From Torpedo marmorata (taxonomy: Eukaryota): 64,000 nucleotides of DNA. Under the pieces are notes generated by a model. That model ran no database searches and was not told the origin of the DNA. It saw only the letters and a list, made by a program, of their open reading frames with translations. Positions 8,694 to 54,875 of the stretch are shown in pieces (within the stretch, counting starts at the first letter, position 1; each line of letters opens with the position of its first letter). A program made the position numbers and the translations under genes. The DNA lies in contig OZ360228.1 in the NCBI GenBank assembly GCA_977017645.1, forward strand, positions 122,822,001 through 122,886,000, in the 5' to 3' direction.

Positions 8694-10690
8694 TTAGCTT
8701 CTTTCTGCTTGTTCGATTTTAACGTCGCTCGTCAGCAAGTGTTCTCCGTGCCATTTTTTCATGTGTTTCTCAAGGGTGCTGTAAACGCTGAAGGGCATTT
8801 GACAAATGTCGCACCTGTAAACCTCCTTGCCAATCTGGCCGTGCGTTTTCATGTGACGTGTCAGCTTGCTGCTCTGGGCGCATGCATAGTTGCAGAGCTC
8901 GCATTTGTAAGGCCGCTCGCCCGTGTGGCTCCTGCGGTGCACTGTCAAGTTGCTGCAGTTTTTGAACACCTTGCCGCAGTACTCGCAGGTGTCGCTGCGG
9001 CGTCCTTCCTTGGAGCTCGGTCTGCCGGGGCCCGGGCCGCCCATGTGGGGAGTGCTGCCGCTGCTGGCGGTGCCGCTGCGGCCGGAGAGACCTCCGTCCA
9101 GCATGTCGCCGGGAGGGGTGGAGAACCTCAAGCTGTCGTTCTCCGAGGAGTGCTCCGAAGACGTGGCGAAGGGCGACTGTCTGGAGTCGCCGAACCCCAG
9201 GAAGGGATCTTTCATGAAGTGGCGGGACGCCGCGTAGCCCACCAGCCACTGGGAGTAAACGTTCTCAGAGGGGATGAGCGGTGCCGAGGACAGGTCCAGG
9301 TCTTTCTCCATCTTGATTCTCTTCGCGGAGGCGATCGACGGAGAGGGGCTGGCGATCAGGGGGGGCTTTCGAGGCAACATGATGGGGAAGGGCTCGCCGG
9401 GGCCAAAGCCTCGCCCATTCACCGCCCCGTCTTCGGGGCGATCTAGCTCCCCCGCCACGGAGTCTTCGTCCCCGGTGTCCCTCTGACCGTCCGACGGTCG
9501 CTTGGAGAAGATGCTGCGCTTCTGCTTGTCAGTGAGCACGTCGCTGTAATGCTGGATGGCGCGCAGGCCCACGTTCTCCATCACCTTGCCCAGGACGCAG
9601 TGCTTCTCGATGGCCGGCAGCTTGAAGCCGTTCTCCCTGTTGCGGCTCAGCTCGGAGTCCATGCTGAAGCTGGACTCGGGCCTGCTCTCGTTCTCCAGCT
9701 CCTCCTCCTCTTCCTCCTCCTCCTCCTCCTCCTCCTCCTCGTTCAGGAGGCCGGGGTTGAAGCCGGCGGCGCCACCCTTCAGTCCGCAGCCCTCGCCGCC
9801 GGCATGCTCGCTGGTGCCAGGCTCAGGGGAGCTGGTGGCGGAGAGCCCGTCGTCCGACCTGCCCGCCACCGAGGCGCTCTTGTGTATGTGAGTCTTCATG
9901 TGGCGCTTGAGCTTGCTGGCCTGGGAGCAGGCGTGGTCGCACAGTTGACACTTGTACGGCTTCTCGCCCGTGTGGCTGCGCCGGTGGACGATCAGGTTGC
10001 TCTGGAACTTGAAGGTCTTGCCGCAGAACTCGCAGGACTTGGTCTTGGCCTGCGACTGCGGCGGGGTCGTGCTGCTCGGCGGCATGGGGGGCAGCGGCGG
10101 CGTGCTCAGGAATGGCGACTTGGGGCTGGGCTGGAAGGGCTGCAGCAGGCGGTGCATAGGATTGTGCCGGCTTGGCGACAAGGGCGGGGTGGAACTGTTG
10201 TTCCCCGCCAGTTCCCGGAGCCTCCTGGAAAAGTCCATGGTCTGCGATTCCAGGCCCAGAGGGTGATTTAAGCGCATTACTCTGTCGAAGGCACTGTGAT
10301 GCTGAGAGACCAAGCTCATTTCGTCGGCACTAAGGCGGTCCAGGCGGTGGGGGTCGAGGTGATGCCGAGGGGGCGGGCTGAAGATGGGGGGAGTGTTGGG
10401 GAGGCGCCCGTCGCCGAAGCCTGGGTGCTCCTGGAGGATGGGCCCCGTCATCCGCAGCAGGTTGAAAGGGTTGCTGTCGCCCAGGAAGTTGGTGAGGGGC
10501 GACTGCGAGATAGGGTCCGGGCCCAGCGAGGGCGGGAGCCCAATCCGGGGAGTGAGGGGGCTGCTGGACGGGTGTGTCTCCAAGTAAATGCGGAATCCAT
10601 GTGTGTTCTGCGCATGCTGGAGGAGGAACCAGGCGTTCGAGAAAGGCTGCTTGCATGTTGTGCAAATGTAGCTTGAAGGCTCGTCTTTAC
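8694..10690 (-). CDS. BCL11B: BCL11B (CTIP2) terminal coding exon, C2H2 zinc-finger transcription factor; upstream exons not in window
   Basis: Acceptor ttttcgtgcAG at 10692-10691, then G|GT AAA GAC GAG = (G)[37 protein letters not shown], in frame with the 629-aa ORF to the stop at 8694. Contains the finger pair [21 protein letters not shown] / [21 protein letters not shown], a 14-Glu tract and three C-terminal fingers. The end [21 protein letters not shown] and GFRIYLE are BCL11B-type rather than BCL11A-type. SUMO consensus motifs IKME and VKIE are present. Confidence 0.97.
8900..10620. other. CpG/GC-rich island over the BCL11B terminal exon
   Basis: Visibly dense CpG and high GC3 against AT-rich flanks. 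Confidence 0.7.
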
Positions 10691-10872
10691 CTGCACGAAA
10701 ACAGAAGAGTCTCTGGTTACATCGATTGCACCTTCAACCCAGTGAATAATTCCAAATGTTTAGATATATTTATTACAAATAATATTGCACTATAATATCG
10801 TATGAATGTGATTTCTTGTAGTCACTGAATAAACTACCTTGGTTGAAGGAAAAAAAAACGGAGCACACACAT

Positions 10873-11383
10873 TCCCTTGCCGTCGTGTCTGTCCATGGTC
10901 TCATGCACTTCCAAACTGAGACCTCCCACAAATTGGAGGAACACCACCTCATGTTCCACCTGGGCACCCTCCAACCAGATGTCATCAACATCGACTTCTC
11001 CGGTTTCTGTTAGCCCCCACCCCATGTCTCCATTTTTTCTAGCTCTGTCTCTCTCTCTCTTTCCCTATCCATCTGTCTCCTTTCCTCCAGCTCTGCATAT
11101 TCACAGAGCCACCCCCCCTCCCCCGATTAATTCTCAGCGTTTTTTGCTCCTGCCCTCCTATCTATGTCAACCTGTGACCTCTTGGCTGTTGGCCTGTGCT
11201 CTTCCCCCGCCCCTTCTTCCCTCCTCCCCCCTACCTTTATATTCAGGCGCCTGCCTGCTTTTTGCTCATGCCTTGACGAAGGGCTCAGGCCCGAAACGTT
11301 GGTTATATATCGTTGCCTCCTATGGACGCTGCTGGACCTGCTGAGTATCTCCAGCACTTTTGTGTATTTACTACAATCACTCC
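10873..11383 (+). mobile_element. Penelope-like element 3' fragment (GIY-YIG C-terminus plus pLTR with hammerhead motif)
   Basis: 10870-11013 translates HSLAVVSVHGLMHFQTETSHKLEEHHLMFHLGTLQPDVINIDFSGFC*, typical of a PLE endonuclease end. Flanked by a 15-bp near-TSD acgg(a/t)gcacacacat at 10858-10872 and 11384-11398. Confidence 0.85.
11270..11303 (+). ncRNA. Minimal type-I hammerhead ribozyme-like motif (PLE-associated)
   Basis: GCC-UUGACGA-A-GGGC(UCAG)GCCC-GAAAC-GUU-GGU: core, stem II, palindromic ACGU stem III, short stem I. Confidence 0.6.
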
Positions 11384-16869: not shown

Positions 16870-17624
16870 TCCTAAGGCAATGCTGCTATTTGACCGATGC
16901 AATGCCAAAGACTACTCACCACTCCTGACATCGATACACGTCTGACATGCTGCAGGACCCAAGCAGGTCGAACCGACTCTGGGTGTCCAGCACATTGCGT
17001 TTTGCTCCAGATTCCAGCATCTGCAGTCTCTCATGTGTCTCCAACTCACACACAGTCTTTGCATTAGAAGTGTTCAAGGGGTGAGCCTACAATGTAAACT
17101 GAAATCCCAAAACGAACAAAGTTTTGATATCCTCTTGCTGACCCCTGGTTCGCACTCTCGTGGCCTCCAGCCAGCATCTTCACAAAGATGCCTTTATACA
17201 TTTCCAACCAAGTTCATTCACAAGCCTTCAGCGCAATGTCCACAGCAGATCGGTACAGTTCAGCTACCCCTATGGAGAAGAACAATGCCTTGCATTGTGA
17301 ACCTCTTGTCACTTAAGAAGCATTCCCTTGGCATCGAGCCACGGGAACTGGAAGAGACCATTCAGGCAATCAATCTCACAGTGATTTTCACTGAATTTGA
17401 CACTTTCACCTCCCCCTCCCCATTTTCCATCATACCCCTTCTCTCTGCTTTACAAGAAAGACATCTTGCTTGGTTCTTAACTAATGATTTGTTTAAATAT
17501 CTTCCCCCCCCCCCCCATGTAACTCATATCCTTTGTCCATTGTTCTTTTGACAATCACCTCGCAATTACTCCTCATTTTTACATTTTGGATTTCCCGTTT
17601 TTAACTAAGATGAAACTAAAGATT

Positions 17625-18904: not shown

Positions 18905-20377
18905 TGTTCCAAAAGTCTCCTTTCCCGGTCGTGGGAGAGTCTAGGACCAGAGGGCATTGCCTCAGAATAAAAGGACATCCCTTCAGAACAGAGATGAGGA
19001 GAGAATTCTTCAGCCGGAGGGTGGTGAACCTGTGGAATTCGTTGCCGCAGACGGCTGTGGAGGCCAAGTCACCGGGTAAATTTAAAGCAAGCGATGATAG
19101 GTCCTTGAGTTAGTAAGGGTGTCAAAGGTTCCAGGGAACATGACCATGTTGAATGTAAAAAGGTTCCCTCTTCTTCACCACATCTAAAACATCTGTTTGA
19201 TATCGCGGAGTTTCAATTTTTGTGGTGTGAAATATAATTGATGTAAAAAGTTGTATTGTACCAGTCTATATCTTACATTAACAGTGTTGGTCATACTATC
19301 TAAACATAGATTCGACCATCTTTTTTCGTCAATTATAACATTAAGATCTTGTTCCCATCTTTGTCTAGATTTATGAAGCCCTCGTTTTAAAGCTCCCCTC
19401 TGCAACAAAGAATACACCATAGAAGTAAACTTCTTAATATTTCCTTTCCTAATGAGAGTTTCTACCTCACTACAATCTTGTAACAAAAATTGAATAAGAT
19501 AAACTCCGCGATATCAAACAGATGTTTCAGGTGTGGTGAAGAAGAGGGAACCTTTTTACATTCAACATGGTCATGTTCAAAAGTTAAAGGTTTTTGGGCA
19601 GAGTTAGGAAACCGGTTAAAACAAATTACAGGTGTTACATTCCCTCAGAATCCTGACTTATTTTTATTGGGAAACGTAGAAGGAACTAGACCAAAATTGA
19701 AATTATCTATATGGCAATTAAAATTGCATTAGCAGTAGCAAGGAAATGTATAGCAGTAACTTGGAAATCGGATACAAATTTAAGTATGGATAGATGGAAT
19801 TCAGAGATGCAGAGTTGTATTCGATTGGAAAGAATAACGTACAACATGAGGAATAAATATGGGCTATTTTTGCAAATTTGGCGTCCATTTATCCAATTAT
19901 TAGGAATGAATATTTAAATGTGTTGCCCTACATCCCAGACCCTGCTGACTCTCTTAAATTTAAATTTAAAGAATGAGCACTGTTGAACTTATTGCACCGA
20001 GCCGTGGACCTGTACAGATATTTTTTCTTCCTCTCTCTCTTCTTTCTTATTCTTAGTGAGGGGAGGGGATAAGGGATGGGAAGGGTGGAGGGTGGGTTGT
20101 TTTAGTAAGGGTGGGTTTAGATGGGGTTAGAACCACGGTAATACGAAATCTGTATGTATTGAATTTATTATTGTTCACTTTGTACTTTGTATTATTTTGT
20201 ATTATTGTGAAAATTTGAAAATTTAAAATAAAATATTTTAAAAAAAAAGGTTCCAGGGAGAGTGCAAGAAAATAGGATTGAGAGAAAAGAAAATATATCA
20301 ACCGGGATTCGAATGGCAGAGCAGACTTGAAGGGCTAAATAGTCTAATTCTGCTGCCACACCTTTATAGTCTCATGG
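18905..20377 (+). mobile_element. CR1-type 3' fragment split by an L1 insertion
   Basis: SRTRGHCLRIKG...FFSRRVVNLWNSLPQ; resumes after 20259. Confidence 0.8.
19138..20245 (+). mobile_element. L1-clade LINE, 5'-truncated with inverted 5' segment
   Basis: CCHC-like region RCFRCGEEEGTFLHSTWSC on plus, AATAAA and poly(A). The preceding ORF2 part (RYRLVQYNFLHQLYFTPQKL) lies on minus at 19138-19482. 14-bp TSD AAAGGTTCCAGGGA at 19124-19137 and 20246-20259. Confidence 0.9.
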
Positions 20378-20929
20378 TCTCTCCCTGTCCCAGCCATTTT
20401 CTCTTATCCTGTCTTTTTAATCCAACATCCTGAATGAAAAACTTCTCCGACTGATGAAGCATTACAGGTGAAGAGGGCTCATAAGCATTTCTTCAACACT
20501 GAGACCTAAAGAGTAAGCTCCTTCATTGTCTATCAGCCATGGGAAGATTCCACAGTTCTCCGACAGTCCTGTGGAGGGCTGATTAAGCAGGTTTAAGTGA
20601 ATTTCATTGAAAGTGATCTCTCACACTCCAACTCATTAGTGACTGTTAGAGGTTACACCACAAGGAAACAGCTTCAAAGGATGATGTATATAGTTTCCAA
20701 TGCATCTCATCAGGTGAGTTAGACAAGATTACACTGGAAAATCACTGAAGGACCAAGCATGCCCCGGCTTTTTCCTGTTGTCTATTTATCATAGTATAGG
20801 AGGTCATTTGGTCCATTACACGTGCTGGCTCTCAGAGCAATCCCATTTCTATATTTACCTCCTGTAACCATCTTGTTCCTGCACTTACGGTAAGTTACAG
20901 TGGCCAATTAATCAACCAGCAAAAAAAAA

Positions 20930-21640
20930 AAAACACTAAACTGCTGGAGGAACTCAGCGGGTCGAGCAGCACCTGAGGGAGGGAGAGGAATTTCAACGTT
21001 TTAGTTTGAGACCTTGCGTCAGGACTGAGAGCGGAGAGGACAGGTAGTCAGTGGAGCAGTGGAGTGGAGAGGGGGAGGGCTGAGACGGGGCCCAGTAGGT
21101 GATAGGTGAGCTGAGGAGTGAAGGATGACGGGCAGATGGAGTGAGGCAGGGGAGCAAAAGGGGTGGCATTGGGAGGCAAGAGGCAGGAGGGTGATAGGCG
21201 GCTGCTGCCTCCTCCTTTGCCCTCCCTTCCCCCATTCACCAATCACCCATCTGACTCTGCCTCCCATTCCACCCCTCCTGCTTCCCCAACTTGCTCCATC
21301 TGCCCGTTGCCCTTCCTCGATCCACCTATCACCTACTGGCCGCGGTTTTACTCCACCCCTTCATCTCAAATATACTGGCTATCTTCCGTCCAGCAGGGGA
21401 CACAAGAGAAGCTGCAGGTGCCGCAATCTGGAGCAAAAAAACAACCCTCCCCTACTGGCTATCCCTCCTCTGCACTCTCAGTCTTGACGAAGGGTACCAA
21501 CCCGAAATGTCGACCATACTTTTTCTCCCACTGATGCTGCTCGACCCCGAGTTCCTCCGGCAGATGGTTTGTTGCTCAAGTTTCCCCAGTGGTCTGCTTT
21601 CTGCTCCAGATTCTGGCATCTGCAGTCTCTTTTGTCTTCG
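20930..21640. mobile_element. Penelope-derived inverted pLTR structure
   Basis: ctgctggaggaactcagc left arm and gagttcctccggcag right arm; purine-rich/pyrimidine-rich mirror halves; hammerhead-like motifs at ~20995-21025 (-) and 21481-21514 (+). Confidence 0.7.
21481..21514 (+). ncRNA. Minimal hammerhead ribozyme-like motif
   Basis: GUC-UUGACGA-A-GGGU(ACCA)ACCC-GAAAU-GUC-GAC; stems I and II covary relative to the other copies. Confidence 0.55.
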
Positions 21641-21769
21641 ATTAGTCTATCTTTGGGAGAAAATTGGGGCTACTGATATACAGAGGAAAACCATTAAAAT
21701 TCACACAACACACCTGGGAAACAGGGTTCAAGGTTCCTCAGATATAAAAAGGAGAGTCCAAACAAAGGT

Positions 21770-22793
21770 GTTGCACTTTGGAGGACTAACCAAGGTAGGA
21801 CATATGCGGTAAACAGGAAGGCACAGAGGGTTCCTGACCGTGTCGGAGGTTCGGATCTGGAGCTCGGGTTGCCGATGGTTTGGACTGGACTCTGGGTGGC
21901 TGCGGAGGCTGCGGAAGCGCTGGAGGCGAATCTACAGACACTCGGTGACTCTGGGGGGACTCTCTTTTGCTTCTCTTTCTCTGACTGTAAGGAATGTAGG
22001 AGGCGCTTAGGCAATTTCTGCCGGTGGCGAATTTGTCTGCTTTGCAGCAGGCAAAAAGAAATCTCATGTAATATGACACTGTTTTATTATTATGACAATA
22101 AATTGAATCTTGAATCTAAAATAGAGGGATCTGGGAATACAAATACATAATTCCGTGAAAGTGGTGTCACAGGATTATAGAGAGAGAGCTTATGGCACAT
22201 TGGCCTTCATAAATCAAAGTATTGAGTATTGGAGTTGGGGTGTTATGGTGAAGTTGTATAAGACTTTGATGAGGCCATATTTGGAGTATTGTGTGCAGTT
22301 TTGGTCATGTAACTACAGGAAACATCAATAAGCTTAAAAGAGTGCAAAAAAAAATTACAAGGATGTTGCATGGACTTGAGGAGCTGAGTTACAGGGAAAG
22401 GTTTAACAGGACTTTACTCCCTGGAGCGTCAGAGAATAAGGGGAGATTTGATAAAGGCACACAAAATTATGAGGGGGACGGAGTAAATGCAAGCAGGCTT
22501 TTTCTACTGAGGTTAGGTGAGAGAAATTCTAGAGGACGTGGGTTAAGGGTGAAAGATGAAATGGAACATTAGGGGGAACTTCTTCATGCAGAGAGTGGTG
22601 TGAGTGTGGAACGAGATGCCACCTGAAGTTGTGAATGCGGGCATGATTCTGACATTTAAGAAAATGTGGATGGGTACATGGATGGGAGGGGTATGGTCCA
22701 AGTGCAGATCAATGTGACCGTGCAGAATAACAGTTCGGCACAGACAAGATGGGCTGAGGGCCTGCTTCTGTGCTGTAGTGTTCTGTGATTCTA
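21770..22793 (+). mobile_element. CR1-type fragment interrupted at ~21815-22117 by the (TTGAATC)n-tailed retroposon
   Basis: LHFG..., gagtattgtgtgcagttttggtc, LEELSYRERFNR and CR1 tail. Confidence 0.8.
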
Positions 22794-23718
22794 CGGTCAG
22801 GAACCCCAGTTCTTGGAGCTGTGCAGGAGCTGCCCATCACCGATGCATTTATCTAAATAAAATCAAATGTCCATTTACCAAGGCTTCCACCCAAATCCTA
22901 GAAATTTAATAATATTTTGACCTTTTTAATCATTCTTGGGCATCGCTGGAAAGCATTTATTGCCCATCACCAACTACTCTTGAGAGCTAACCTGAATCTC
23001 CATTTTGAATTGCTTGTAATATTTTGATGGCAACTAAGCAGCACGGATGCCTACATGGCATGTTTAAATCAGCCAGGGTTTTAGAGCTGCATATAAAATC
23101 AGCCTGGAAAAGTACAGCAGCTTATTCCCCCCCAAGGAAAGTACAATAGTTTCATCATCCCTACAACTGACACGAGCTTTATTCCAGATTTATTTAATTA
23201 ACCAAACTTAAATTCCCCAGGTGCTGTGGGGAGATCTGAATTCATACCTTCAGATCATTAGACCAGGTCTCTGGATTACGACTGCAGCATTTTAACAAGG
23301 ATTCTGCTCTACCTATTCTGACGGGCTTCCTGGAGGGAGGTTTAAATCATAATGACAATGGGTTTATTGTCATATGCACAAGTACAATGAGCGCGTGCAC
23401 TGAAATTTTTACTTGCCACAGCTAAACAGTTGCAATACACACAAATGTGCTGGAGAAACTCAGCAGGTCACGTAGCATCCATAGGATTTAAAACGATTGT
23501 GGTGCTGGGATAGCTTATGATTAGGGTAGTACGGGGAGGTTCAAGAGCCTGACAGCCATTGGATATAAAACTGTTCTTGAACCAAGAGGTGCTGACTTTC
23601 AGGTTCTGTACCTTCTCCCTGAAAGTAACAGGGAGAAGACCTCATGAAGGGGGCATTGTTTTGGTTTTGGTGAGGTTTTAACTTTTGGCATCTCCCTCTC
23701 TTTATGAAAGGTGTCAAC

Positions 23719-23959
23719 TCAAAAAAAAAAGGAAAAAAATCCCGAAGTATCACACGGGAGAGCCGGTTTACGTCACATCTGATTATAAAGCCCTCCAGCT
23801 TTGAATGGAAATCACAGGGTAAACTCACAAAAACACCACTGGGAAATAGGGTGAAAAAAAAGCTCTCGGATTTAAAATGGGAAATTGCCTGTTCCGTGAT
23901 GCAGTGACCCAACTATCGTGTTTAAGCACGTTTCTTTAAGGCCGAGCAGATCTCCTGCT
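23719..23959 (+). repeat. ~240 bp local direct duplication, copy 1
   Basis: Nearly identical to 24405-24644. Confidence 0.95.
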
Positions 23960-24070
23960 CAAGGGCTCCACTACAAGCCAATGGTATTCAACTAATAGAA
24001 TTAAAACTGCAAAGCCCCTTCTCGTGAATCCAAGCAAAGACCGATTCAATCTTGGGGCAGGTCTATGAAA

Positions 24071-24303
24071 TAAAAACACAATGCTGGAGAAACTCAGCAG
24101 GTCAAACAGTCTACTTTATATAGCAAAGATAAAGATACATAACCAACGTTTCGGGCTTGGGCCCTTCATCAAGGGTTCAAACCTGAAACATTGGTAATGT
24201 ATCTTTATCTTTGCTATCTAAAGTACACTGTTTGACCTGCTGAGTTTCTCCAGCATTGTGTTTTTACTTCAACCACGGTGTCTGCAGACCTTCGTGTTTT
24301 ACT
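24071..24303. mobile_element. Penelope-derived fold-back insertion, 233 bp
   Basis: ~95 bp inverted arms meeting at the hammerhead motif; perfect 14-bp TSD GCAGGTCTATGAAA at 24057-24070 and 24304-24317. Confidence 0.88.
24142..24175 (-). ncRNA. Minimal hammerhead ribozyme-like motif, sense to BCL11B pre-mRNA
   Basis: CC-UUGAUGA-A-GGGC(CCAA)GCCC-GAAAC-GUU-GG on minus. Confidence 0.5.
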
Positions 24304-24404
24304 GCAGGTCTATGAAACATACAGTGAAGAAACGAAATTCTGAGGAATGCATACAAAGGCATGTTGAGTGCCTTCAGTGTCTCTGCAACAGATCGCTGCA
24401 GCAG

Positions 24405-24644
24405 TCAAAAACAAAAAGGAAGAAAATCCCGAAGTATCACACGGGAGAGCTGGTTTACGTCACATCTGATTATAAAGCCCTCCAGCTTTGAATGGAAATC
24501 ACAGGTAAACTCACAAAAACACCACTGGGAAATAGGGTGAAAAAAAGATCTCGGATTTAAAATGGGAAATTGCCTGTTCCGTGATGCAATTACCCAACTA
24601 TCGTGTTTAAGCAAGTTTCTTTAAGGTCGAGCAGATCTCCCGCT
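24405..24644 (+). repeat. ~240 bp local direct duplication, copy 2
   Basis: Nearly identical to 23719-23959; continues into unique AT-rich sequence. Confidence 0.95.
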
Positions 24645-25264
24645 TATTGCGAGGAATAAATATGTGTGATTTTTTTTTAAAAAGTAAAATAATAACTGAT
24701 ATCCCAGAACGTGCTGTGTTTAGCTCGGCAATGCGTGGTTATCAGCTGATGAGATTTAATAAAAATCAATCTCAGAATGGCTAATTGAAAACCTCAGATT
24801 GTTAACAGTTATGTTTTCCATTAGCCCCTTTTGTTGTAAATCGACACAAACCTCCAGACTAATCCCCCGAGTCAATGTACAGACAGTATTTTAGTTTTAA
24901 TGGAGCTATGCAGAGCATACATTTAGCAACTAAGTGGTAATTGACATTACACAGACACAGTCTCATAGCCACATTATATAGGTTAGCAAATACAGAGGGG
25001 AGTTATTAATGGGGCAGAGCAAACAAATGATAATATATGTATGTAGTGCTGAATGATGTGATGTTAAGAGTGTTGGGTCTTGTGGGATTTATAAAACAGG
25101 GAAAAATGGCAACTGAGCACAAGTAAATTTGTCTCATTTGTCTATTAAATTAAAGGTCAGCGTTCTGACCTGAAATGCAATAAAAGGTTGCAACTTCAGA
25201 GTGGGACTGAGTTGGTGCCTCTTCTGTCCAACTTCTTGCCGGCACCCAGCCTTTCTCGCTGGTC

Positions 25265-25563
25265 ACCTGGTGCTGAGGGCGCTGAGGGCTTCCTGATTGT
25301 GTCGGAGGTTTGGATCTGGAGCTCGGGCTGCTGATCGTTTGGATTGAAGGCTGCGGAGGCTGCGGGAGCGCCGGAGGCGAATCCATGGACACTCAGTGAC
25401 TCCGGGGAGACTCTCTTTTGCTTCTCTTTCTCTGACTGTAAGGGGTGCCAAACAATTTCTGCCGATGGCGAACCTTTGACTGCCTTCCGGTAGACTAAAT
25501 GCAATTTCATGTAATATTACATTTACTGTTTTATTACATGACAAAAAAAGAATCTTGATTCTT
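25265..25563 (+). mobile_element. (TTGAATC)n-tailed retroposon copy
   Basis: Matches 21815-22117. Confidence 0.75.
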
Positions 25564-26282
25564 AGCAGTGAGTTCCAGCACCTAGCATTCCAGACCAACC
25601 CTCTGGAGCAGCACTGAAGGAACATTAAGGTGTCAGAGGAGGCAGCTTTCAGGTGGTGCGTGTACCTGCATCCACAAGCACTACACAGGATGGAACCATG
25701 GGCGGTGTTTGAAGAGGTTCGCCTACTATTTCTTGGTTAGTGTTCGTTTAAAAGGGAAGTTGTGGGTGAATGAGAGACAATAAGCTGCAGGGCTGAGGGA
25801 AGTCAGAGGGAGGGGGGACTGGTGGGATTGCTCCTCTGGGAGCTGGAATGCCCACCTTCTGTGATATAACAGGTAAGTAAGCGAGCAGCAAAATGAAGCT
25901 AACTGGACATTGAGCACAGTTGCTCCTTCTGGGACCTTTTGATGCACACTGCTGCATTTGATTATTTAACAATGGTGAGTAGAATCAGGAGAGCTTGAAT
26001 GAGTGTGAGGTACACTGGGGCTTCCTAATAACCTGCACTTCAAGGTCAAGTTCTTAACTCTCAGACGGTTTCAGCAACTATACACGAATAATTGCCTGGA
26101 TTCTAGTAAAGGAAATACAGAACAAATCTACCTCCTTCCTGCCCAGAAGCAACAGGCTTTGAGCAGTCTGTGCTTCAATTCCATCCTCTGCAATTCTTAA
26201 CATGAAGATATTTGACTCTGCACTCACATGGTAATTACTTACAAAAGTGAAAAAGACAACAACAGCAAGCAATCCAGTCAAA

Positions 26283-26530
26283 ATTTTAAATTTAGACATA
26301 CAACACGGTAACAGGCCCTTCCGGCCCATGAGCCTGTGCAGCCCATTACATCCAATTGGCCTACAACCCCCGTACGTTTTGAAGGGTGAGAGGAAACCAA
26401 GAGCACCCGGAGGAAACCCACGCAGACACGGGAAGAACGTACAAACTCCTTACAGACAGCGCCTGATTCGAACCCGGGTCGCTGGCACTGTAACAGCGTT
26501 GCGCTAACTGCTACGATAACAGTGGCGCCG
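26283..26530 (-). mobile_element. tRNA-derived V-SINE (HE1-like)
   Basis: Box B GTTCGAATC, V-domain, tail ctgttaccgtg.tgtatgtctaaa. Confidence 0.85.
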
Positions 26531-27044
26531 AAAAGTGAAAGGGACCTTGGTGATGTTACCGATCAACCCAATTTCCCCAGCAATGGATCAAAAAAAAATT
26601 TATTTAGTACCCTTCAAAAGAACCCAAGGAATTCTGGGCAGCAAAAGATGTCCTTGTTTTGCTGGCAATCATCGCCTTTCAAAAGTCTTTTTTACCAAGG
26701 AAAATTATGCAGCCAATTGTTTTTATATTTAAAAGAAATGTTTGTGGGCCAGACCACAGCGGGCCCTCCATGACTTCCTAATCTCAAGACTTCTTCATCG
26801 GTATGGAGAAAGTAATGTGCGGAGTGTGACTCCTGTGGTTACTTCCTGCCCCAAGTCCCCAACTCTCAGTCTCCTGAAAGCACAGGAGAATAGAATAGAA
26901 AGGAGGTTTAGGGATATCCACTGTCCTATAAGACACTGTACAAAATCCAACTCTTGGTCAGATTGCATACGAGTCAAGTGCTCGATTGTTTTGTTTATGT
27001 TCTGGTAAAACTACATTTAGAGTAAAGAGTGTCAGCAATTCACA

Positions 27045-27606
27045 CATAAGACCTCATTTGGAGTATTGTGAGCAATTTTGGGCTCCTCATTAAAGAAAGG
27101 ATGTGCTGACGTTGGGAGAGGATTCAGAGGAGGTTCACTCGGATGATTCCAGGAACGAAAGGGTTTTCATATGGGGGAGCATTTGACAGCTCTTGGCCTG
27201 TACTTGTTGGAATTTAGGAGAATGAGGGGGGATCTCATTGAAACAATTTGAATGTTGAAAGGCGTGGACAGAGTAGATGTAGAAAGGTTGTTTCCCATGC
27301 TGAGAGAGTCCAGGACAAGAGGGCACAACTTCAGGATTGGTGTCCACTTAGAAAAGAGGAATTTCTTCAGACAGAGGGTGCTAAATCTGTGGAATTTGTT
27401 GCCACAGGCGGTTGTGGAGGCCAGGTCATTGGGTGTATTTAAGGCAGAGATTGATTGGTTCTTGATTAGCCAGGGCACCAAAGGTTATGGGGAGAAGGCC
27501 GGGCAGTGGGGCTGAGTGGGAAAATGGATCAGGTTATGGTTAAATGGCGGGGCAGACTCGATGGGCTGAATAGCTTATTTCTGCTCTTATTTCTTATGGT
27601 CTTATA
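27045..27606 (+). mobile_element. CR1-type LINE 3' fragment
   Basis: KGVDRVDVERLFPMLRESRTRGHNFRI...NLWNLLPQ; (cttatggt) tail. Confidence 0.88.
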
Positions 27607-27699
27607 CAAGATCAGCATTTGCTGGCTGAACTAGTAAACATCGCATCCTGTGAAAGAATAACAATTAAAGCTAATTTAATTAAAATTTTTATTTTTTAA

Positions 27700-27943
27700 A
27701 AAAAATTAGACATACAGCACGGTACAGGCCATTTCGGCCCACGAGTCCATGCCGCCCAATTTACACTCAATTAATCTACAACCCCAGTACGTTTCGAACG
27801 GTGGGAGGAAACCGGAGCTCCCGGAGGAAACCCACGCAGACACGGGGAGAACATACAAACTCCTTACAGACAGCACGGGATTCGAACCCCGGTACCCATT
27901 GCTGGCGCTGTAAAGGCGTCGCGCTAACCGCTACGCCGTCCGT
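27700..27943 (-). mobile_element. V-SINE
   Basis: Box A/B, V-domain and tail as in other copies. Confidence 0.88.
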
Positions 27944-28240
27944 GTTCTCTATGATATTAATGTTAAAAAAAAACTGCTGGTGCTGGAAATCTTAAATAAA
28001 ACCAGAAAATGCTGGAACTACTGAGTAGGTCAGATTGAAGCATCTGAAAAGAGAGAAAGACAGGGTGAACATTTCAGGAAAATGACCTAAGGTCCAAAAG
28101 GTCATCAATCTGAAACATGAACTCTGTCTCTTTTCTCTGAAGGTGCTGCCTTACCTGCTGAGTGTTTCCTGCATTCGCCGTTAATTGCAGCAATGTTATT
28201 TTGCCGCGATTTTGTGCCTCAACACAGTCTTTTTAAAAAG

Positions 28241-28431
28241 TTACAATATACAAATGTGCTGGAGAAACTCAGTAGGTCACGCAGCATCCAAAGGAAGTAA
28301 AAGTTAACCAACATTACGGGCCTGGGTCCTTTGTCAAGGTACGCTATGGATGCTGCGTGACCTGCTGAGTTTCTCCAGCACCTCTGTGTGTTGCACTCGA
28401 CCCCCAGCTTCTGCAGACTTTCTTGTTCAAC
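28241..28431. mobile_element. Penelope-derived fold-back insertion
   Basis: Inverted arms gtgctggagaaactcag/ctgagtttctccagcac; degenerate hammerhead on minus at ~28307-28340; probable TSD tct(n)aaaaag. Confidence 0.75.
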
Positions 28432-28534
28432 TCTTTTTTTTTTAAAAAGGTGTTTGCTGATAGAAGTTTATAGTTCACATACCAGAAATGCCAACTGAAA
28501 TATTTCACAGAGCAGTTGTCATTCCTTTACTTTT

Positions 28535-29209
28535 TTTTTGAATATTTTATTTTTTTATTTTTAAAGTCCACAATATAAACAGAAAATATACGATTTACAA
28601 CTATATACAACATTATCATTAAACTCACCCTCCCTCCCCCAACTGAAAAAAGAAAATAAAACATACAAAAGAAAAGAAAGAAAATGAAAAACTAAACGTA
28701 CCGTCAGTGCTTACATTGATTTTTCAATCTTTTTGGAGGCGCCACACCGTTAAATATTTCTACGCTATATTGTATTGTACCTTAGGGTTTGAATTACAAC
28801 TGGACCCCAATATTCTCCAGGTATGGTTGCCACACCTTTACAAATGTACCGTATTTATTCCTGAGATTATATGTAATTTTCTCCATGGGAACACAGCTGT
28901 GCATTTCTGCTGACCATCGAGTGATTTGAAAGGGGGAGTCGGACTTCCAAGTGACTGCTATGCATTTTTTTGCTACGGACAAAGCAACTAGCACAAATTG
29001 AATTTGGAATTTAGATAATTTGTAGCTTATGTCCATTAGATTTCCGGAGATACAACTCCGGGTCCAGTGGAAAGGCTACCCCCGTAATTCTGGTTAGTGC
29101 ATTAGATATAGACCAAAAGGGTCGTACCTTTGCACAGGACCAAGTGGAGTGCAGGGAAGTTCCAATTTCCCCACCACATCTGAAACACATTTCCGATATT
29201 TTGGATTTT
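28535..29209 (-). mobile_element. L1-clade LINE, 5'-truncated
   Basis: ORF2 end ALSVAKKCIAVTWKSD...EKITYNLRNKY...KVWQPYLE; poly(A); 16-bp TSD TCATTCCTTTACTTTT at 28519-28534 and 29210-29225; empty site reads TTTT/AA. Confidence 0.9.
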
Positions 29210-29896
29210 TCATTCCTTTACTTTTAAAGTTTTACTCCTTCTCTGTCCCCAAATTCCAAACGAAGATGAGTAATCCGGTCTGTTTAAGATCCTCGGCAGA
29301 GCAGAAGGATAGAAGGGAAGGCTCGAGGGATTAGCCTGCTCTGTCAGCAGTGGGCCAGATGAAGCCCGTGTAAACCCATCCTCTCAAGTAAGAGAGATGC
29401 TCGCAGACTTGTCACGCAGCACAAAAGTCATCAGTAACTAAATGTTCTTAGCTACGCCGCAATTAAGCAAAATCAATATGATGTGCCAGAAATGGTATTT
29501 TACTTTCAATAAGGCTTTTGGTGGAGTTTATTCAGAATATTTTAGCCGCCCCCGGGGGGATTTTGCTCAGTCACAGATGGCAAATAAAGTCTTCAGCCCG
29601 AGGCTACATGGTATTATGCTAATTTTAATGTCAGATGTACTTTTATATACAGCTCTATTTAATCACCCCATTATTCTGCATTTCCATATGAAAAACACAG
29701 CCCAGAGCAGCTCAGGTATAGCCCTTCGCCACAGTGGTTGCCTTCCCCTTCAGCTTCTGTAGCTGAATCTGCTCTGGTCACTGATACCTGGCTTCAGAAA
29801 AGAGCAAAAGCAAATGTCACCAGAATTGCAGCGAGAACACAGAAATCCTAGAGGAACTCGGCGGGTCTCGTGGCGTCGATAGGAGGCAAAGATATA

Positions 29897-29965
29897 CAGA
29901 TGGTCCCCGACATACGTCCGAGTTCCTTTCTGGATCTCGAAATGGACGTAAGTCGGATATATGTT
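29897..29965. mobile_element. Single Tigger/pogo-type terminal inverted repeat end
   Basis: TA|CAGATGGTCCCCGACATACG...ATCTCGAAATGGACGTAAGTCGGA; similar to the ends of the Tigger element at 44810-45927. Confidence 0.8.
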
Positions 29966-30184
29966 ACTCCGGGCCGACACGTTCTTAAACTTCATCCATG
30001 GCCCAGCCCGCCCGGCACTGGAAAGACCCGTTGTCCACCACCACCGGCATCTGGCCTGCGCTCACCTCCCCCACCTCGAACACCGGGTCCGCCACCACTT
30101 TCGTGTCCCGAAAATAGAACACATTCGGCGGCAGCGGAGTCTCGGCGCCCTCCCGGTCCGTGGCCGTCGCCATGTTGGTCCGTC
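29966..30184 (-). pseudogene. ACTR5: ACTR5 (Arp5, INO80 subunit) 5' fragment: short leader, ATG and ~70 codons with a frameshifting deletion
   Basis: MATAT...[17 protein letters not shown]...[17 protein letters not shown], then shifted KFKNVSARS. Matches the recalled ACTR5 N-terminus NVFPFRDARAAPDPVLE...PLVLDNGSFQVRAGWA...QFRAVCARG. Kozak-like ccaacATGG at 30173. Confidence 0.85.
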
Positions 30185-31296
30185 AAAATAAACTCTTTAT
30201 CAGGACTCTTCGTCGTTCACCCTGATGAAGAGTTTTGGCTCAACCATTCTTTTTGCTCCCACTGATGCTGAGTTCATCCAGCAGATTGAGTTTGGCTTCA
30301 CGTTCCAGCGTTTGCAGTCTCCTGGGGGTCAATCAGAAAGAGCAACCCATTTGAAGTCCACAAAGACAGAACGATGTGGAGGGGCCAGGGCGTTTTACAC
30401 CAACTTAATAAACTTTGCAAGCCGCATCACTTTTGATCTCTGATTTTGCTTGATGTTACCACAACAACTTCAAGAAACAAAACCGAAATAACTCTACTCT
30501 CACAAATTTCAGCTGACCTGTTTTGGCCAGACAAACTGATATGGCAGGATCACCCTATCAGGGCTGAGTGTGAAGAGGTTACTCTTCCCCACCACCCCCA
30601 TGGCCCACTCCACCGTGCATAGAGATGGTAGCATAAGTCAAAGAATTGGGGCCACAATCATGTAACCCTGCCTCTGACTCACCACCTCCCTTCCAAGCAC
30701 CACTTCCTGCCAGCGATGCAGTATCACCGGAATACATCTCTTGATCTAATGAAATATTTTGAGTGCATACTTGGGTTAGGGAGGTCAATTTTATTGGACT
30801 ACAGAGGCAGCAAGGGTTGTGAGGAGCAGGCAGCAAGGTGAAGTTGAAATCCAAACATCTGAGCAGGCATGATGGTGTTGAATAGCGGAGTAGACTGGAG
30901 GAATGCCATTGCTCCTATTTCTAATGTCTACCTCGGAGCTTTTGTGTATCGACTGTGCAGCCCGGATGTATAGAGTCTGTGGTTACCTTTTACTCCAAAT
31001 CTTGCTTGTATCTTTTCAAAGGGCGTGGCAGATTAAGACAGAAGAAAGACTTCCACTTAAATACTGCCTTGCACCCAGACTGAGTAAATAGTAAGGACCT
31101 TTTACCTCAGCTGAGAGGTCAAATACCTGGGGCCGTCAATATAAAGTAACTTGTGCAAGATGAGAGGGGAGATGCGTTCAAGAATTTCTTTGCACCTAGA
31201 AGGTGACATAGAACTCAGTGCCTGAACAGATGACAGCAGTAGAATCCCTCAAAACTGCACAAAGAGAGAGCTAGTTCAGTGGTATCACAACAACGT

Positions 31297-33560
31297 TAGC
31301 AAAACTAAGGAGCTGATTGTGGACTTCATGACAGGGCAATCAGGAGAACATGAACCAGTCCTCATCGAGGGGCCAGCAGTGGAAAGGGTTAAGAACTTCA
31401 AATTCCTGGGTGTCAACATCTCTGAAGATCTGTCCTGGCACCTCCATGTCGATGCAATCATGAAGAAGGCTCACCAGCGGCTATGCTTCGTGAGGAGTTT
31501 GAGGAGATTTGGTAGGTCACCAAAGACTCTTGCAAATTTCTACAGGTGTACTGTGGAGAGCATTCTGACTGGTTGCATCACTGTCTGATAAGGATGTGCC
31601 AGTGCACAGGACAGGAACATAAGAACATAAGAAATTAGGAACAGGAGTAGGCCAACCGGCCCATCGAGCCTGCTCCGCCATTCAATAAGATCATGGCTGA
31701 TCTGATCGATGACCTAACTCCACCTACCTGCCCTTTCCCCATATCCCCTAATTCCTTTTTTATGTAAAAATCTATCCAACTGAACCTCAAATATGTTCAA
31801 TGAAGCAGCCTCAACCGCTTCCCTGGGTAGAGAATTCTACAAATTCACCACTCTTTGGGAAAAACTGTTTTTCCTCATCTCTGCCCTAAATCTACTCCTC
31901 CGAATCTTGAGGCTGTGTCCCCTAGTTTTGGTCTCACCCGCCAGTGAAAAAAACCTTCCTAACTCTATCCTATCCATCCCCTTCATAATTCTATATGTTT
32001 CTATAAGATCTCCTTTCATTCTTCTGAACTTGAGCGAGTATAATCCCAGACGATTAAATCTTTCATCATAAGTCAACCCCTTCATCTCAGGGATCAACCT
32101 AGTAAACCTCCTCTGGACTGTATATCCTTCCTCAAATATGGAGACCAGAACTGCACACTGTACTCCAGGTGCAGTCTCACCAGTACCTTGTACAGTTGCA
32201 ACATTACCTCCTTGCTCCTGAATTCAATTCCTCTAGCGATGAAGGCCAACATTCCATTTGCCTTCTTAATAACCTGCTGCACCTGCAACCCAACTTTTTG
32301 CGATTCGTGCACAAGCACTCCCAAGTCCTTCTGCACAACAGCGTGCTGCAGTTTTTCACGATTTAAATAATACTCTGCTCTTTTATTTTTCTTGCCAAAG
32401 TGGATAACCTCGCACTTACTAACATTGAACTCCATCTGCCAGACCTTTGCCCACTCACCTAACTTAACTATATCCCTCTGCAGCCTCTCCACATCCTCAG
32501 TACAATTTACTCTTTCACTCAATTTAGTATCATCCGCAAACTTGGCTACACCACATTTTGTCCCCTCCTCCAAATCATCAATGTAAATGATGAACAGTTG
32601 TGGGCCCAGCACCGACCCCTGCGGCTCCCCACTTACCACTGTCTGCCAATCAGAAAAACACCCATTTATCCCGACTCTCTGCCTCCTGTCAGACAACCAA
32701 TCCTCAATCCATGCCAATATACTTCCCTGGACTCCATTCACCTGTAACTTACTGATAAGTCTCTTGTGCGGCACCTTATCAAATGCTTTCTGGAAATCCA
32801 AATATACAACATCAACCTGTTCCCCTCTATCTACCGCACCCATTATGTCCTCAAAGAACTCTAACAAGTTTGTCAAACAAGATCTGCCCTTCCTAAACCC
32901 ATGCTGCATCTGCCTGATTGAACCCCTTCGTTCTAAATGTCTCACTATTTCATCCTTAATGACAACTTCAAGCGTTTTCCCAACTACAGACATTAAGCTA
33001 ATTGGCCGATAGTTCCCAGTCTTCTGCCTACATCCCTTCTTAAAAAGTGGCGTGACATTTGCTGTCTTTCAATCTGCCGGGACCTGCCCAGAATCCAGAG
33101 AATTTTGGTATATGACCACCAATGCATCGACTATAACTTCTGCCATTTCCCTCAGAACCCTGGGAATCAGGGCCAGGAAATAAATTACAGAGAGTTGTGA
33201 ACTCGGCCAGCACCATCATGGCATCAGTCTTCACTCTATCGAGGACATCTACAAGAGGGGGTGTCTTAAGAAAGCAACCTCCATCCTCAAGGACTCTCAC
33301 CACCCTCTTCCCACTGCTACCATCGTGAAGGATGTTCAGAAGCCTGAAGACGAACACCCAACAGCATAAGGACAGCTTCTTCCCTTCTGCCATCAGATTT
33401 CTGAATGGACAATGAACCACAGACACGACCTCACTTTCTATTCTCTTGCAATAATTTATTTATTTTTAAATGTATTTTATAGCAATACTTGCATTGCAAT
33501 GCTGCCGCAAAACAACGAATTTTGTGACATGTTCATGTCAATAAATTCTGATTCTGACCT
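31297..33560 (+). mobile_element. Rex1/Babar-type LINE 3' part, split by a CR1
   Basis: VERVKNFKFLGVNISEDLSW...NFYRCTVESILTGCITV; resumes at 33180; AATAAA(ttctga)n tail. Confidence 0.85.
31618..33173 (-). mobile_element. CR1-type LINE with reverse transcriptase domain (disrupted)
   Basis: QHGFRKGRSCLTNL, YLDFQKAFDKV, PQGSVLGP, KFADDTKL; probable TSD CAGGAA at 31612-31617 and 33174-33179. Confidence 0.93.
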
Positions 33561-34456
33561 GGGGCTGGATGATGGGATGAGGGTGGGTCGATGTTCTTTT
33601 ATCTGAATGGCTGGTTGTGGTGGACAGTTCTGCCCAACTGTATATTTCTAAATGAACCATTCTCATAAACCTCATTCATACCAAATCAGTATTCAAAAAG
33701 AAACTGAAAGGTAAGAGAAAGAGAGAGAGAGAGGACAAACGGACAAGATGAAGTATATGGAATTGAAGGGGATTCGCGTAGATTATAGGCTGAATGTTCT
33801 GCTTCCAGGCTGAGGACACCAAGGGATGCTACTGTTGCTTAATATATTATCAGGGTGAAGTAGTCACTGGCAAAGGCTGCATTCCCTTCCTATCCGAAGC
33901 TGAGGTGTGTGCGGGACTGGAGTCAGATCCAGGCCGAGATCAAGAGATTTCTTTTCCTAAAAGACACTTACGTTTACTGCGACCATCTGTTAGCTTTACG
34001 CTCATGCCTACGATATGTTCAGATCCTCTGGTGATCTGGTTTACTGATCCAGTGGTGTATCCTTCACAGTGAAGCAGCATTCCTCCTTGTGAATTAGTAC
34101 AATGCCATTGATTCGCAGAGATAAAGACAGGTCACGTCCACCTTAGCTGGACAACCTCACAAATGCGCCATTCAGAAGGTTCTCGTCCCGAACTTCCCAC
34201 CAGATCGGCACTACTCCTCCCAAATCCAAGCACATCACCAGAACATCCGGATGCATGCCTCTGGTTGCATTTTAAGCTCCCTCAATTGCACCAGTATTAT
34301 TTAAAGAACACGTCAATGCTGTTGTTGTTGTTGCCCAGGTTCCTCTCTAGTCTGGAAGCAGAACTTGCGAAAGTGAAGCAAAGTTCATCCATGAAGCCTG
34401 CAGCGATACTGCTGTTCAAACCTCTCCAGTAATATTAGAACTTCTGAAGGTAAGAA

Positions 34457-34651
34457 CAGTAAAACACAGTACAAACAGGAATTGGTAGATATCAGATAAG
34501 TGAATTTTCCAGTTGCTTGAGATTGCGTGTTGCGTGGACTGACAAACTAACGGCAACGCGCGCCAATTTTAAATTTCCATATTTTTTACCTATTTATTTT
34601 CCTTGATTTTTTTGCCCGTTGCTTGAATTCCGGATAATGAGGGTTTTACTG
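34457..34651. mobile_element. Degenerate Tc1/mariner-Tigger-type MITE
   Basis: Ends CAGTAAAAC...CCGGATAATGAGGGTTTTACTG|TA; left TA not preserved. Confidence 0.55.
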
Positions 34652-35302
34652 TATTTCCTTCATCTATTTATTATTGGAGGTAACTTGTACAGGATCCCTT
34701 TCAAAAGGAAATTGCAATTGACTTACAAAAGTTGTAATAAAAGGCTGAAAATGCTCAGATCAGAGGGAGAAACAGGCTGATTGCTACAAGCCAATTATCC
34801 TTCTGATCAGGGCTGAAGAGTTGGAGATTTCAGATGCTGCTTGACCTGCTGTGCATTTCCGGCATTTTCCGCTTTCACTTCAGACATGCCGAATTGGCTT
34901 ATAAAAGTTGTGCTGGGAATCTGGGGATGATGTTCATTTGGTCACCAGCATAGAGATGCAGCAGATTAAAGGTTTCCCCTTCTTTCCTGCACCCCCACCC
35001 TATCCTCTTTCTCCACTAAGGGCTGAGAATTAAAGAGTGTGGGAGATCTGCTCTTTCATGTTCATGCTCTGCTGGCCTTCTGTTACGGTAAGGACCTCTT
35101 AGCTCGTGGCAGGAGTCTTGCATGTGGGCCACAAGGAAAGCAGGAGTGGTGGTGACAAGCCTCAGCGGCTGCCGCTGCTCGCAGGCCTGACGTCAGAGAA
35201 AAGGGGGCCCGCAAATATCCACCACACAGAGAAAAAGGAGGAGGGGCCATTGGGTGAGTGACAACTGATGGGAACCAGTGCCGGTTCTCTTTGCCACTAG
35301 TT

Positions 35303-35526
35303 AAATTTTTTTAAATTTAGACATACAGCATGGTAACAGGCCTATTCGGCCCACGAGTCCGTGCCGCCCAATTTACACCCAATTAACTACACCCCCGGGG
35401 AGAACGTACAAACTCCTTACAGACAGCGCGGGATTCGAACCCCGGTCCCAATCCCAGGCACTGTAAAGGTGTTGCTCTAACCGCTACGCCAACTGTGCTG
35501 CCCCATACGCCAACCGTGCCGCCCCA
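35303..35526 (-). mobile_element. V-SINE with internal deletion and 21-bp tandem duplication at the 5' end
   Basis: Tail and boxes present; tacgccaac(t/c)gtgc(t/c)gcccca twice. Confidence 0.8.
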
Positions 35527-35994
35527 AGTTACAAGGCATGGTTACACCAGTGCGGAGTACCAAGATAGAGTACACGAGAATTAGGAGCCAGAGTAGGCCA
35601 TCTAATCCTTCGAGTCCACTCTGCCACTCATCAAGATCATGGCAGATCTACCTCTGCTCCATTTTCTATCTCGATATCTCTTCATTCCCTTTATATCCAG
35701 CGATATATTGATCTCCGTTTTGAGTGAACTCAATAACTAAGCCTCTGCAGCCTTCCGAGGCAAGAAATTTTCTTTGCATCTGTCCTGAAAGGTCTAATCC
35801 TGAAGCCATGACCCCTGGTTCTTGCTTCCTCACCAAGGGGAAACTCCCTCCCTGCAGTTACACGGTCAATAATCTGTAGGGATTTTGTAAGATTCAATGA
35901 GATTATCTCTTGTTTGGGTGGAGAAGCATTAATGTGAGACTTCAAGGGAGTAGAGTGGAAGTCAGGCCAGAACGACTTGGAATAAAGACAGCGA

Positions 35995-36505
35995 GGGCTT
36001 CTTTAAGACTCTCGTAAACTTCTACAGGTGTACCGTGGAGAGCATTCTGGCTGGTTGCATCACTGCCTGGTATGGAGGAGCCAACTCTCAGGACAAGAGT
36101 AAACTCCAGAGGGTTATTAACTCGGCCTGTGACATCACAGGCACCAAACTTCACTCCATCGAGGACATCTACATGAGGTGATGTCTTATAAAAGCAGCCT
36201 CTGTCCTCAAAGACCCCCACCACCCAGGCCAAGCCCTCTTCACTCTGCTTCCATCGGGAAAAAGGTACAGGAGCCTAAAGACGAGCACTCAACGGCACAA
36301 GGACAGCTTCTACCCCGCTGCCATCAGATTCCTGAATAATCAATGAACCAGACACTGCCTTACTTTTCGTGCACTATTACTGATAATTTTTTATAGTAAT
36401 GTCGAAAGATGGTTATAATATGAATTTTAATTGCACTGTGATGCTGCCGCAAAACACCGAATTTCATGACTTGTTCATGACAATAAATTCTGATTCTGAT
36501 TCTTT
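35995..36505 (+). mobile_element. Rex1/Babar-type 3' fragment
   Basis: aacttctacaggtgtaccgtggagagcattctg; AATAAA(ttctga)n tail. Confidence 0.85.
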
Positions 36506-54724: not shown

Positions 54725-54875
54725 GTAGCTACAGCCATCTTGAGGAAGGGCTCAGGCCCGAAACGTCAGTAATATATCTTTATCTCCGATGGACGCTGTG
54801 AGGCCGGCTGAGTTCCTCCAGCATTTCTGTGTTTTGACCACAATCGCAGCGTCTGCAGACTTTTGTGTTTCACTT
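54725..54875 (+). mobile_element. Short Penelope pLTR fragment beginning at the hammerhead motif
   Basis: UUGAGGA-A-GGGC(UCAG)GCCC-GAAAC-GUC at 54740-54767; TSD-like CAGCTACAAG at 54715-54724 and 54876-54885. Confidence 0.75.

Follow-up and report, generated by a model that had tools for sequence, protein, structure and literature searches.

A multicopy Tigger-type Pack-TIR carrying the 5' end of ACTR5 in Torpedo marmorata, and its truncated copy in a BCL11B intron

In animals, TIR transposons carrying pieces of host DNA (Pack-TIRs) have been surveyed by Tan et al. (2021), who reported 370 cases in 100 genomes, 4 multicopy cases among 281 and, as an example, an element with three copies (PMC8277862). 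In the accessible text of that survey, nearly all animal cases are single-copy repair accidents and sharks are not mentioned (PMC8277862). The survey pipeline required a unique top match for the cargo (PMC8277862), a filter that likely drops high-copy families, so part of any gap in copy number would be methodological. In bats, a different kind of element, the Helitron HelibatN3, carries the NUBPL promoter and exon 1 (Thomas et al., 2014; PMC4224331). Here, we describe a multicopy Pack-TIR of the Tigger kind that carries the 5' end of ACTR5, an essential gene, and occupies about 250 places in the genome of the marbled electric ray Torpedo marmorata, a copy number far above the published animal Pack-TIR cases. 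In the open literature, with subscription papers, Repbase and Dfam outside the scope of the search, no report of an ACTR5 capture or of high-copy Pack-TIRs in cartilaginous fishes was found.

Like Pack-hAT-N8_XT (CAPSL 5' UTR) and Ssk-FB4, the ACTR5 element has a few hundred bp of host sequence enclosed by the ends of a single TIR element and, like animal Pack-TIRs as that survey's accessible text describes them, it has a distant, transposon-free parent, distinct target sites, GC-rich cargo and microhomology at one joint (PMC8277862). Unlike the multicopy animal cases in the same text, it has about 250 copies and a secondary subfamily, belongs to pogo/Tigger and carries a coding exon (PMC8277862). 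Bat Helitrons, in the part of the source available, are similar in being found in a vertebrate, carrying gene 5' ends, reaching hundreds or a thousand copies and showing sequential captures, but they are rolling-circle elements with neither TIRs nor TA duplication, whereas the ACTR5 element is of the cut-and-paste type (PMC4224331). Plant Pack-MULEs and Pack-TYPE elements are likewise described as non-autonomous TIR elements with a GC-rich gene piece of ~300 bp, moved in trans; the ACTR5 element differs from Pack-MULEs in being a pogo element with a TA target and short TIRs, and in belonging to another kingdom (PMC8277862). With the Tigger family it shares the TA target, TIRs of ~23 bp and a candidate 2.2-kb partner whose transposase combines CENP-B/HTH and DDD parts, and these features fall within the Tigger ranges given for cartilaginous fishes in the accessible text (PMC9219625). 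Unlike other Tiggers described there, the ACTR5 element has no transposase and its interior is host DNA (PMC9219625).

The window analysed here is a stretch of 64,000 nucleotides of contig OZ360228.1. Its copy of the element lies on the minus strand and has the form claimed by an earlier sequence-only reading, in which a TA and a Tigger end were joined directly to ACTR5: the TA target site is at 29895..29896, the Tigger/pogo end at 29897..29966 (-), and this end abuts the captured ACTR5 piece, 20 nt of leader plus the 5' half of exon 1, at 29967..30193 (-). That reading took the Tigger part for a 70-bp TIR. It is a Tigger end, but not a TIR of that length: alignment to the family consensus, and 86% identity to the end of a complete Tigger (L123, below), identify it as the transposon 3' end, composed of a TIR core of ~23 bp and subterminal DNA. 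The ACTR5 assignment holds, as alignments to the gene and the translated piece agree, the latter matching the solved ACTR5 structure 6hts_H (E 4.4e-10). The ACTR5 ATG lies at 30173-30171 in CCAACATGG context and opens an ORF of 62 codons (29985..30173, -). Both the strong-Kozak ATG and the ORF are thus present as described, but the weight placed on the ORF is not sustained, because its early stop is due to a frameshifting 14-bp deletion near 29988, in the ACTR5 part, that is unique to the window copy among 30 aligned, and because the cargo shows no purifying selection. A further private deletion, of 12 bp, follows 29931 in the Tigger part on alignment to the family consensus.

The inner end of the copy is a deletion breakpoint (30193..30194), where 148 bp of the element are missing (the rest of the leader, the Tigger 5' end, the second TIR and its TA) together with about 22 bp of host repeat, the latter figure being inferred from sister repeats. 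The second TIR, which could not be seen from the window, is therefore absent here by deletion, whereas it exists in most family members. The surrounding host repeat, an older dispersed repeat of a degenerate fold-back type, is the landing site; its left part (29825..29894, +) matches two window copies, at 11306-11377 and 54773-54844, with 74-76% identity in 72 nt, and both of these run on past the TA without any element; its right part (30194..30325, +) is 68-82% identical to window copies at 16986-17030 and 21510-21605. The earlier description of a PLE fold-back around the element is correct as to the repeat, but the arms are complementary at 69% over 36 nt (E 0.11) and the PLE label is unconfirmed. 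An Rfam search of 20000-36000 gave 19 matches at E<=1, generic hairpins only and no hammerhead family, and the arms are degenerate; the likeness of the repeat to a PLE is our assumption. Elsewhere in the window, long, near-perfect fold-backs at 24066-24271 (101-nt arms, 91%) and 21115-21320 score as generic microRNA-like hairpins below family thresholds.

The truncated junction is also present in sequencing runs. A contig of run X1 bridges the 30193 junction with 32 letters on the left and 367 on the right, differing at 13 of the 399; the truncation is therefore real and is found in organism A too. In run X2, a contig match to the right flank begins at 30193, the letters beyond not being shown. 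The left flank (29700-29815) has zero read cover in four runs, and run support for the junctions of the window copy refers to the 30193 side.

The copy lies, as proposed, inside BCL11B and in its sense. The last large coding exon of BCL11B, by its best named matches, is at 8697..10733 (-), and exons 1 and 2 are found some 184-190 kb past the end of the window, also on the minus strand, which places the element in an intron upstream of the last large exon. About 237 kb separate exon 2 from that exon (G000:C40, to about 123,075,500). BCL11B is a landing site only; the capture event happened elsewhere.

The capture is documented by the family rather than by the window copy. DNA search of the 6.2-Gb genome of the same organism gave 270 candidates, of which 40 were scored; 28 of 29 other returned loci begin with the same transposon end, the exception being the parent gene. 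The 22-mer spanning the TIR-ACTR5 junction has 42 exact genome matches (control 0) and is therefore not a chance junction; the sequence-only reading had named many loci with this junction as the sign of a mobilised family. A 29-letter cargo pattern, at <=3 mismatches, occurs at 257 places including the parent gene (control 0), a count from which the window copy is missing because it is cut inside the pattern; a pattern ending in letters private to the window gave 67 matches, an undercount. We examined 101 loci, chosen by likeness and thus leaning towards well-kept copies, of which 92 carry cargo, 90 are distinct and 89 remain when the parent is excluded. Both inverted ends are present in 70/89 of these copies; in the two-ended copies, TA stands on both sides in 55/70 and the left flanks are distinct in 69/70, as expected of a multicopy Pack-TIR with separate insertion sites. 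The full element measures 473 bp, with TA at each end and ~265 bp of ACTR5 cargo, which lies within the 100-5000 bp of non-transposon interior between two ends of one element that define a Pack-TIR; the window copy has one end, so its classification comes from the family. These counts (42 junctions, 257 cargo places, both TIRs in 70/89) support the DNA-transposon-linked capture proposed at the outset. All copies have the same two joints, which points to a single founder, and the element likely arose once.

The parent gene is found on a different contig from the window (L003, G000:C49:13784126 on), where exon 1 is complete to its GT donor and two further ACTR5-like exons, located with ACTR5 motifs, follow ~5 and 7 kb downstream. 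It is the one locus among the 90 distinct cargo loci that continues into the gene. Over 253 bp, this locus and the family consensus agree at 98%, above the >=90% identity expected between a Pack-TIR and its parent. The cargo begins about 45 nt ahead of the ATG and extends to codon 73, ending mid-exon 1, and therefore contains no splice junction; in agreement with the earlier description, it consists of leader and part of exon 1, the gene's 5' end only, and has no poly(A). A Pack-TIR parent is also free of flanking transposons, and in 60 kb around ACTR5 there was no Tigger end, with short AT-rich matches of <=34 bp only. The founder locus was not found among the copies examined. A candidate for a founder near the parent, 585 kb away at C49:13.199 Mb, was rejected, as it has none of the parent-like non-CpG states.

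A related Tigger is L123, a 2.2-kb element with one 598-codon frame, picked from the best 30 of 15,861 DDE_1 candidates. It has both ends in common with the ACTR5 element, at 86% identity for 84 bp and 91% for 115 bp, carries CENP-B_N (PF04218), HTH_Tnp_Tc5 (PF03221) and DDE_1 (PF03184) domains over the Pfam cut-off and has a catalytic spacing of DD32D. On domain order, spacing and TIR form, it is probably a Tigger rather than a member of another pogo family. Frame and cargo have the same orientation, which makes the TIR in the window the 3' end and means that ACTR5 replaced the transposase. The outermost TIR bases of L123 differ from those of the ACTR5 element, so L123 is a relative of the mobiliser and a candidate partner. 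Elsewhere in the assembly, near-identical DDE_1 scores and 494-codon open frames recur on many small contigs (C318, C923, C1031, C1135, C1625, C1637, C1727 and C2732 of G000), which suggests either a repeated array or a pogo family that is young and perhaps active.

The same ends are shared by other non-autonomous elements. The 5'-side Tigger sequence has 388 matches; among the first 100 listed, counted by eye, 42 are plain derivatives, 31 carry ACTR5, 26 are a 328-bp sister element and 1 carries DMRT1 sequence. Full-length donors were sought among 19 ends of autonomous type, all of which proved to be short derivatives. The 328-bp sister MITE (sister element A; L067-L096, L267-L296) has 1641 candidates and a 102-bp interior with two motifs, presumably of promoter type, one YY1-like and the other TCTCGCGAGA. 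A source for this interior was sought, and 30/30 best loci were copies of the element, with no parent. Further sister elements combine the same Tigger ends with GC-rich tandem-repeat interiors (L068:874-1590, L071:1501-2129, L192, L196-L198, L201-L204, L206).

Taken as a whole, we consider it highly probable that the window holds a truncated copy of a 473-bp Tigger-type element with an ACTR5 front, an element present at ~250 places, with a likely single origin by template switching, likely movement in trans and a likely inert cargo. Its history may be pictured as the repair of a broken Tigger, in which synthesis would have left the Tigger 5' end, switched to ACTR5 as a template, copied the stretch between ~45 nt upstream of the ATG and codon 73, and finally switched back to the Tigger 3' end. 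The joint on the 3' side is blunt. On the 5' side, parent and Tigger interior have an 8-bp word in common at the cargo end, ~50 bp inside the present joint; in a post hoc test, 0.8% of windows drawn at random from 20 kb of the parent locus gave as good a match. The word and its offset fit a homology-guided switch followed by a small deletion: the 8-bp word may have guided one switch, with ~50 bp lost afterwards, so the microhomology reading requires one extra deletion. Transposase of intact relatives likely mobilised the element in trans. The window copy would then have inserted at the TA of the older repeat in the BCL11B intron, and the 148-bp, 14-bp and 12-bp deletions would have come after its insertion.

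The template may instead have been RNA, a 5'-truncated or prematurely ended ACTR5 transcript used in the repair. The intron-free cargo has the same sense as the lost transposase gene and starts close to a possible transcript start, as this proposal would predict. That start is putative, and the cargo stops mid-exon with no poly(A); also, intron DNA is part of both other amplified captures in this genome, which shows capture at the DNA level to be at work here. Since the cargo ends inside exon 1, the family itself looks the same under either template, and we regard capture via RNA as improbable. Far less probable, to the point of being negligible, is that independent insertions, segmental duplication or an assembly artefact brought a Tigger end and a scrap of ACTR5 together. 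The single TIR of the window copy would be compatible with such an accident, but identical joints recur at dozens of unrelated sites, there is no Tigger at the parent, and TIR-cargo joints are found in contigs of other organisms as well as in the X1 contig across 30193. Distinct flanks with the same joints rule out segmental duplication, the joints in other organisms' contigs rule out an assembly artefact, and bypass of the end of a Tigger beside ACTR5 is ruled out by the lack of a Tigger end in the 60 kb around the parent. Repair of a broken Tigger by template switching is the reading that we retain as likely.

The function of the cargo is a separate question. The family consensus has an open frame of 101 codons that continues through the TIR, and 36/65 undeleted copies retain an open cargo frame. 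A first, cruder count suggested coding selection (ratio 0.79, z 3.1), but the apparent signal is gone under site-level permutation of 89 copies with six frames as controls, where the non-CpG dN/dS-like ratio is 0.97 (p 0.53). A residual signal at CpG transitions (0.79, p 0.04) is mirrored in the opposite-strand frame. The cargo evolves neutrally, and the selection on the ORF that marks a functional chimeric gene of the Ssk-FB4 type was not detected, with the window copy frameshifted. Contigs of run X12, which we guess to be RNA, match the cargo and include one TIR-cargo joint, but they could come from DNA or introns, and the window locus is not among them.

Also, some copies might act as portable promoters or regulatory sites and give rise to chimeric transcripts or small RNAs affecting ACTR5 or host genes, BCL11B for instance. 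The observed/expected CpG ratio of 1.08 in the cargo of the window copy, against 0.48 for the window, points this way, as do a 12-nt motif over the ATG, kept with <=1 mismatch in 79/89 copies and presumably YY1-like. Bat Helitrons with gene 5' ends, in the accessible part of their description, reach higher copy numbers (PMC4224331). On the other hand, the captured sequence upstream of the ATG is only ~45 nt (20 in the window copy), strong splice sites are lacking, CpG sites decay as in methylated DNA, and cargo copies are no commoner than sisters with the same ends in the first 100 of 388 matches listed (31 vs 26 vs 42). A regulatory role of this kind therefore seems unlikely to us, if slightly less so than capture via RNA. 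The cargo is read as a passenger, likely inert, a regulatory role being possible for some copies, and the copy in the BCL11B intron is probably a decayed passenger, likely inert as well.

The family is old, not recent. A 95-bp deletion common to 24/89 copies (23 with identical breakpoints), plus 5 diagnostic substitutions, indicates a second master copy and a second wave of amplification. At non-CpG sites, copies differ from the two subfamily consensuses by 2.4% and 3.0%; for CpG sites, which decay ~5x faster than other sites, the value is 12-13%. The sequence-only reading had taken the CpGs of the window copy as retained and the insertion as recent, a view contradicted by these values and by the presence of the family in runs from three other organisms. 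In runs X1, X2 and X6, which come from three studies and from organisms A, B and C, contigs extend over the cargo and include TIR-cargo joints, and the joint of the deletion subfamily is seen in X1 and X2. The source for the epaulette shark, as far as it is accessible, gives a rate of 7e-10 per generation (PMC10587355); at this rate, which may not transfer, the family would be tens of millions of generations old.

Other amplified captures occur in the same genome. A 728-bp TIR element with different TIRs (L127-L156), which we take to be Tc2/Kanga-like, carries the DMRT1 leader and exon 1 start, with internal deletions, and pieces resembling an intron 1 repeat. Its junction pattern has 449 matches (control 0), both ends are present in 23/30 loci, and its parent (L169, G000:C2:246427132) lies in a three-gene DM cluster on C2. 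The DMRT1 piece also stands behind the Tigger end of the ACTR5 element at four loci (L085:1033-1589, L086, L090:1501-2125, L131), so this cargo is common to two transposon families. Further, 19 dispersed loci (L161-L168, L172-L184) carry a DMRTA-type exon 1 that retains the DM domain in full or for the most part, together with the first part of intron 1. All 19 tested copies match the parent L160 (G000:C2:256478365) at 87-93% and have one 5' terminus in common, presumably hAT-like; the far end and a target duplication were not found among the loci tested. Of 3770 DM candidates, 150 were scored and yielded 87 hits over the Pfam cut-off, against an expected handful of genes; the DMRT1 and DMRTA families matter in this way for annotation, and also for sex-determination studies in these fishes. 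It is conceivable, although we hold the idea tentatively and think it rather doubtful, that, within this lineage of fish, at least three kinds of cut-and-paste transposon captured gene 5' ends (ACTR5, the sex-development regulator DMRT1 and a DMRTA), amplified each to dozens or hundreds and passed the DMRT1 piece between families, as Pack traffic on a plant-like scale biased to gene starts open in the germ line. Such traffic would keep portable promoters and DM-domain fragments constantly available, some of them put to use.

The ACTR5 family stands at the other end from single repair accidents, as one capture amplified in the manner of a MITE to about 250 copies. Its parent, a candidate transposase partner, sisters and a derived subfamily are found in one genome, and the family is also present in related organisms. 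Through it, the mechanism of capture, the bias towards 5' ends and the fate of the cargo become directly testable. These observations suggest that high-copy Pack-TIRs are perhaps hidden inside repeat consensus libraries, where filters that demand unique hits miss them.
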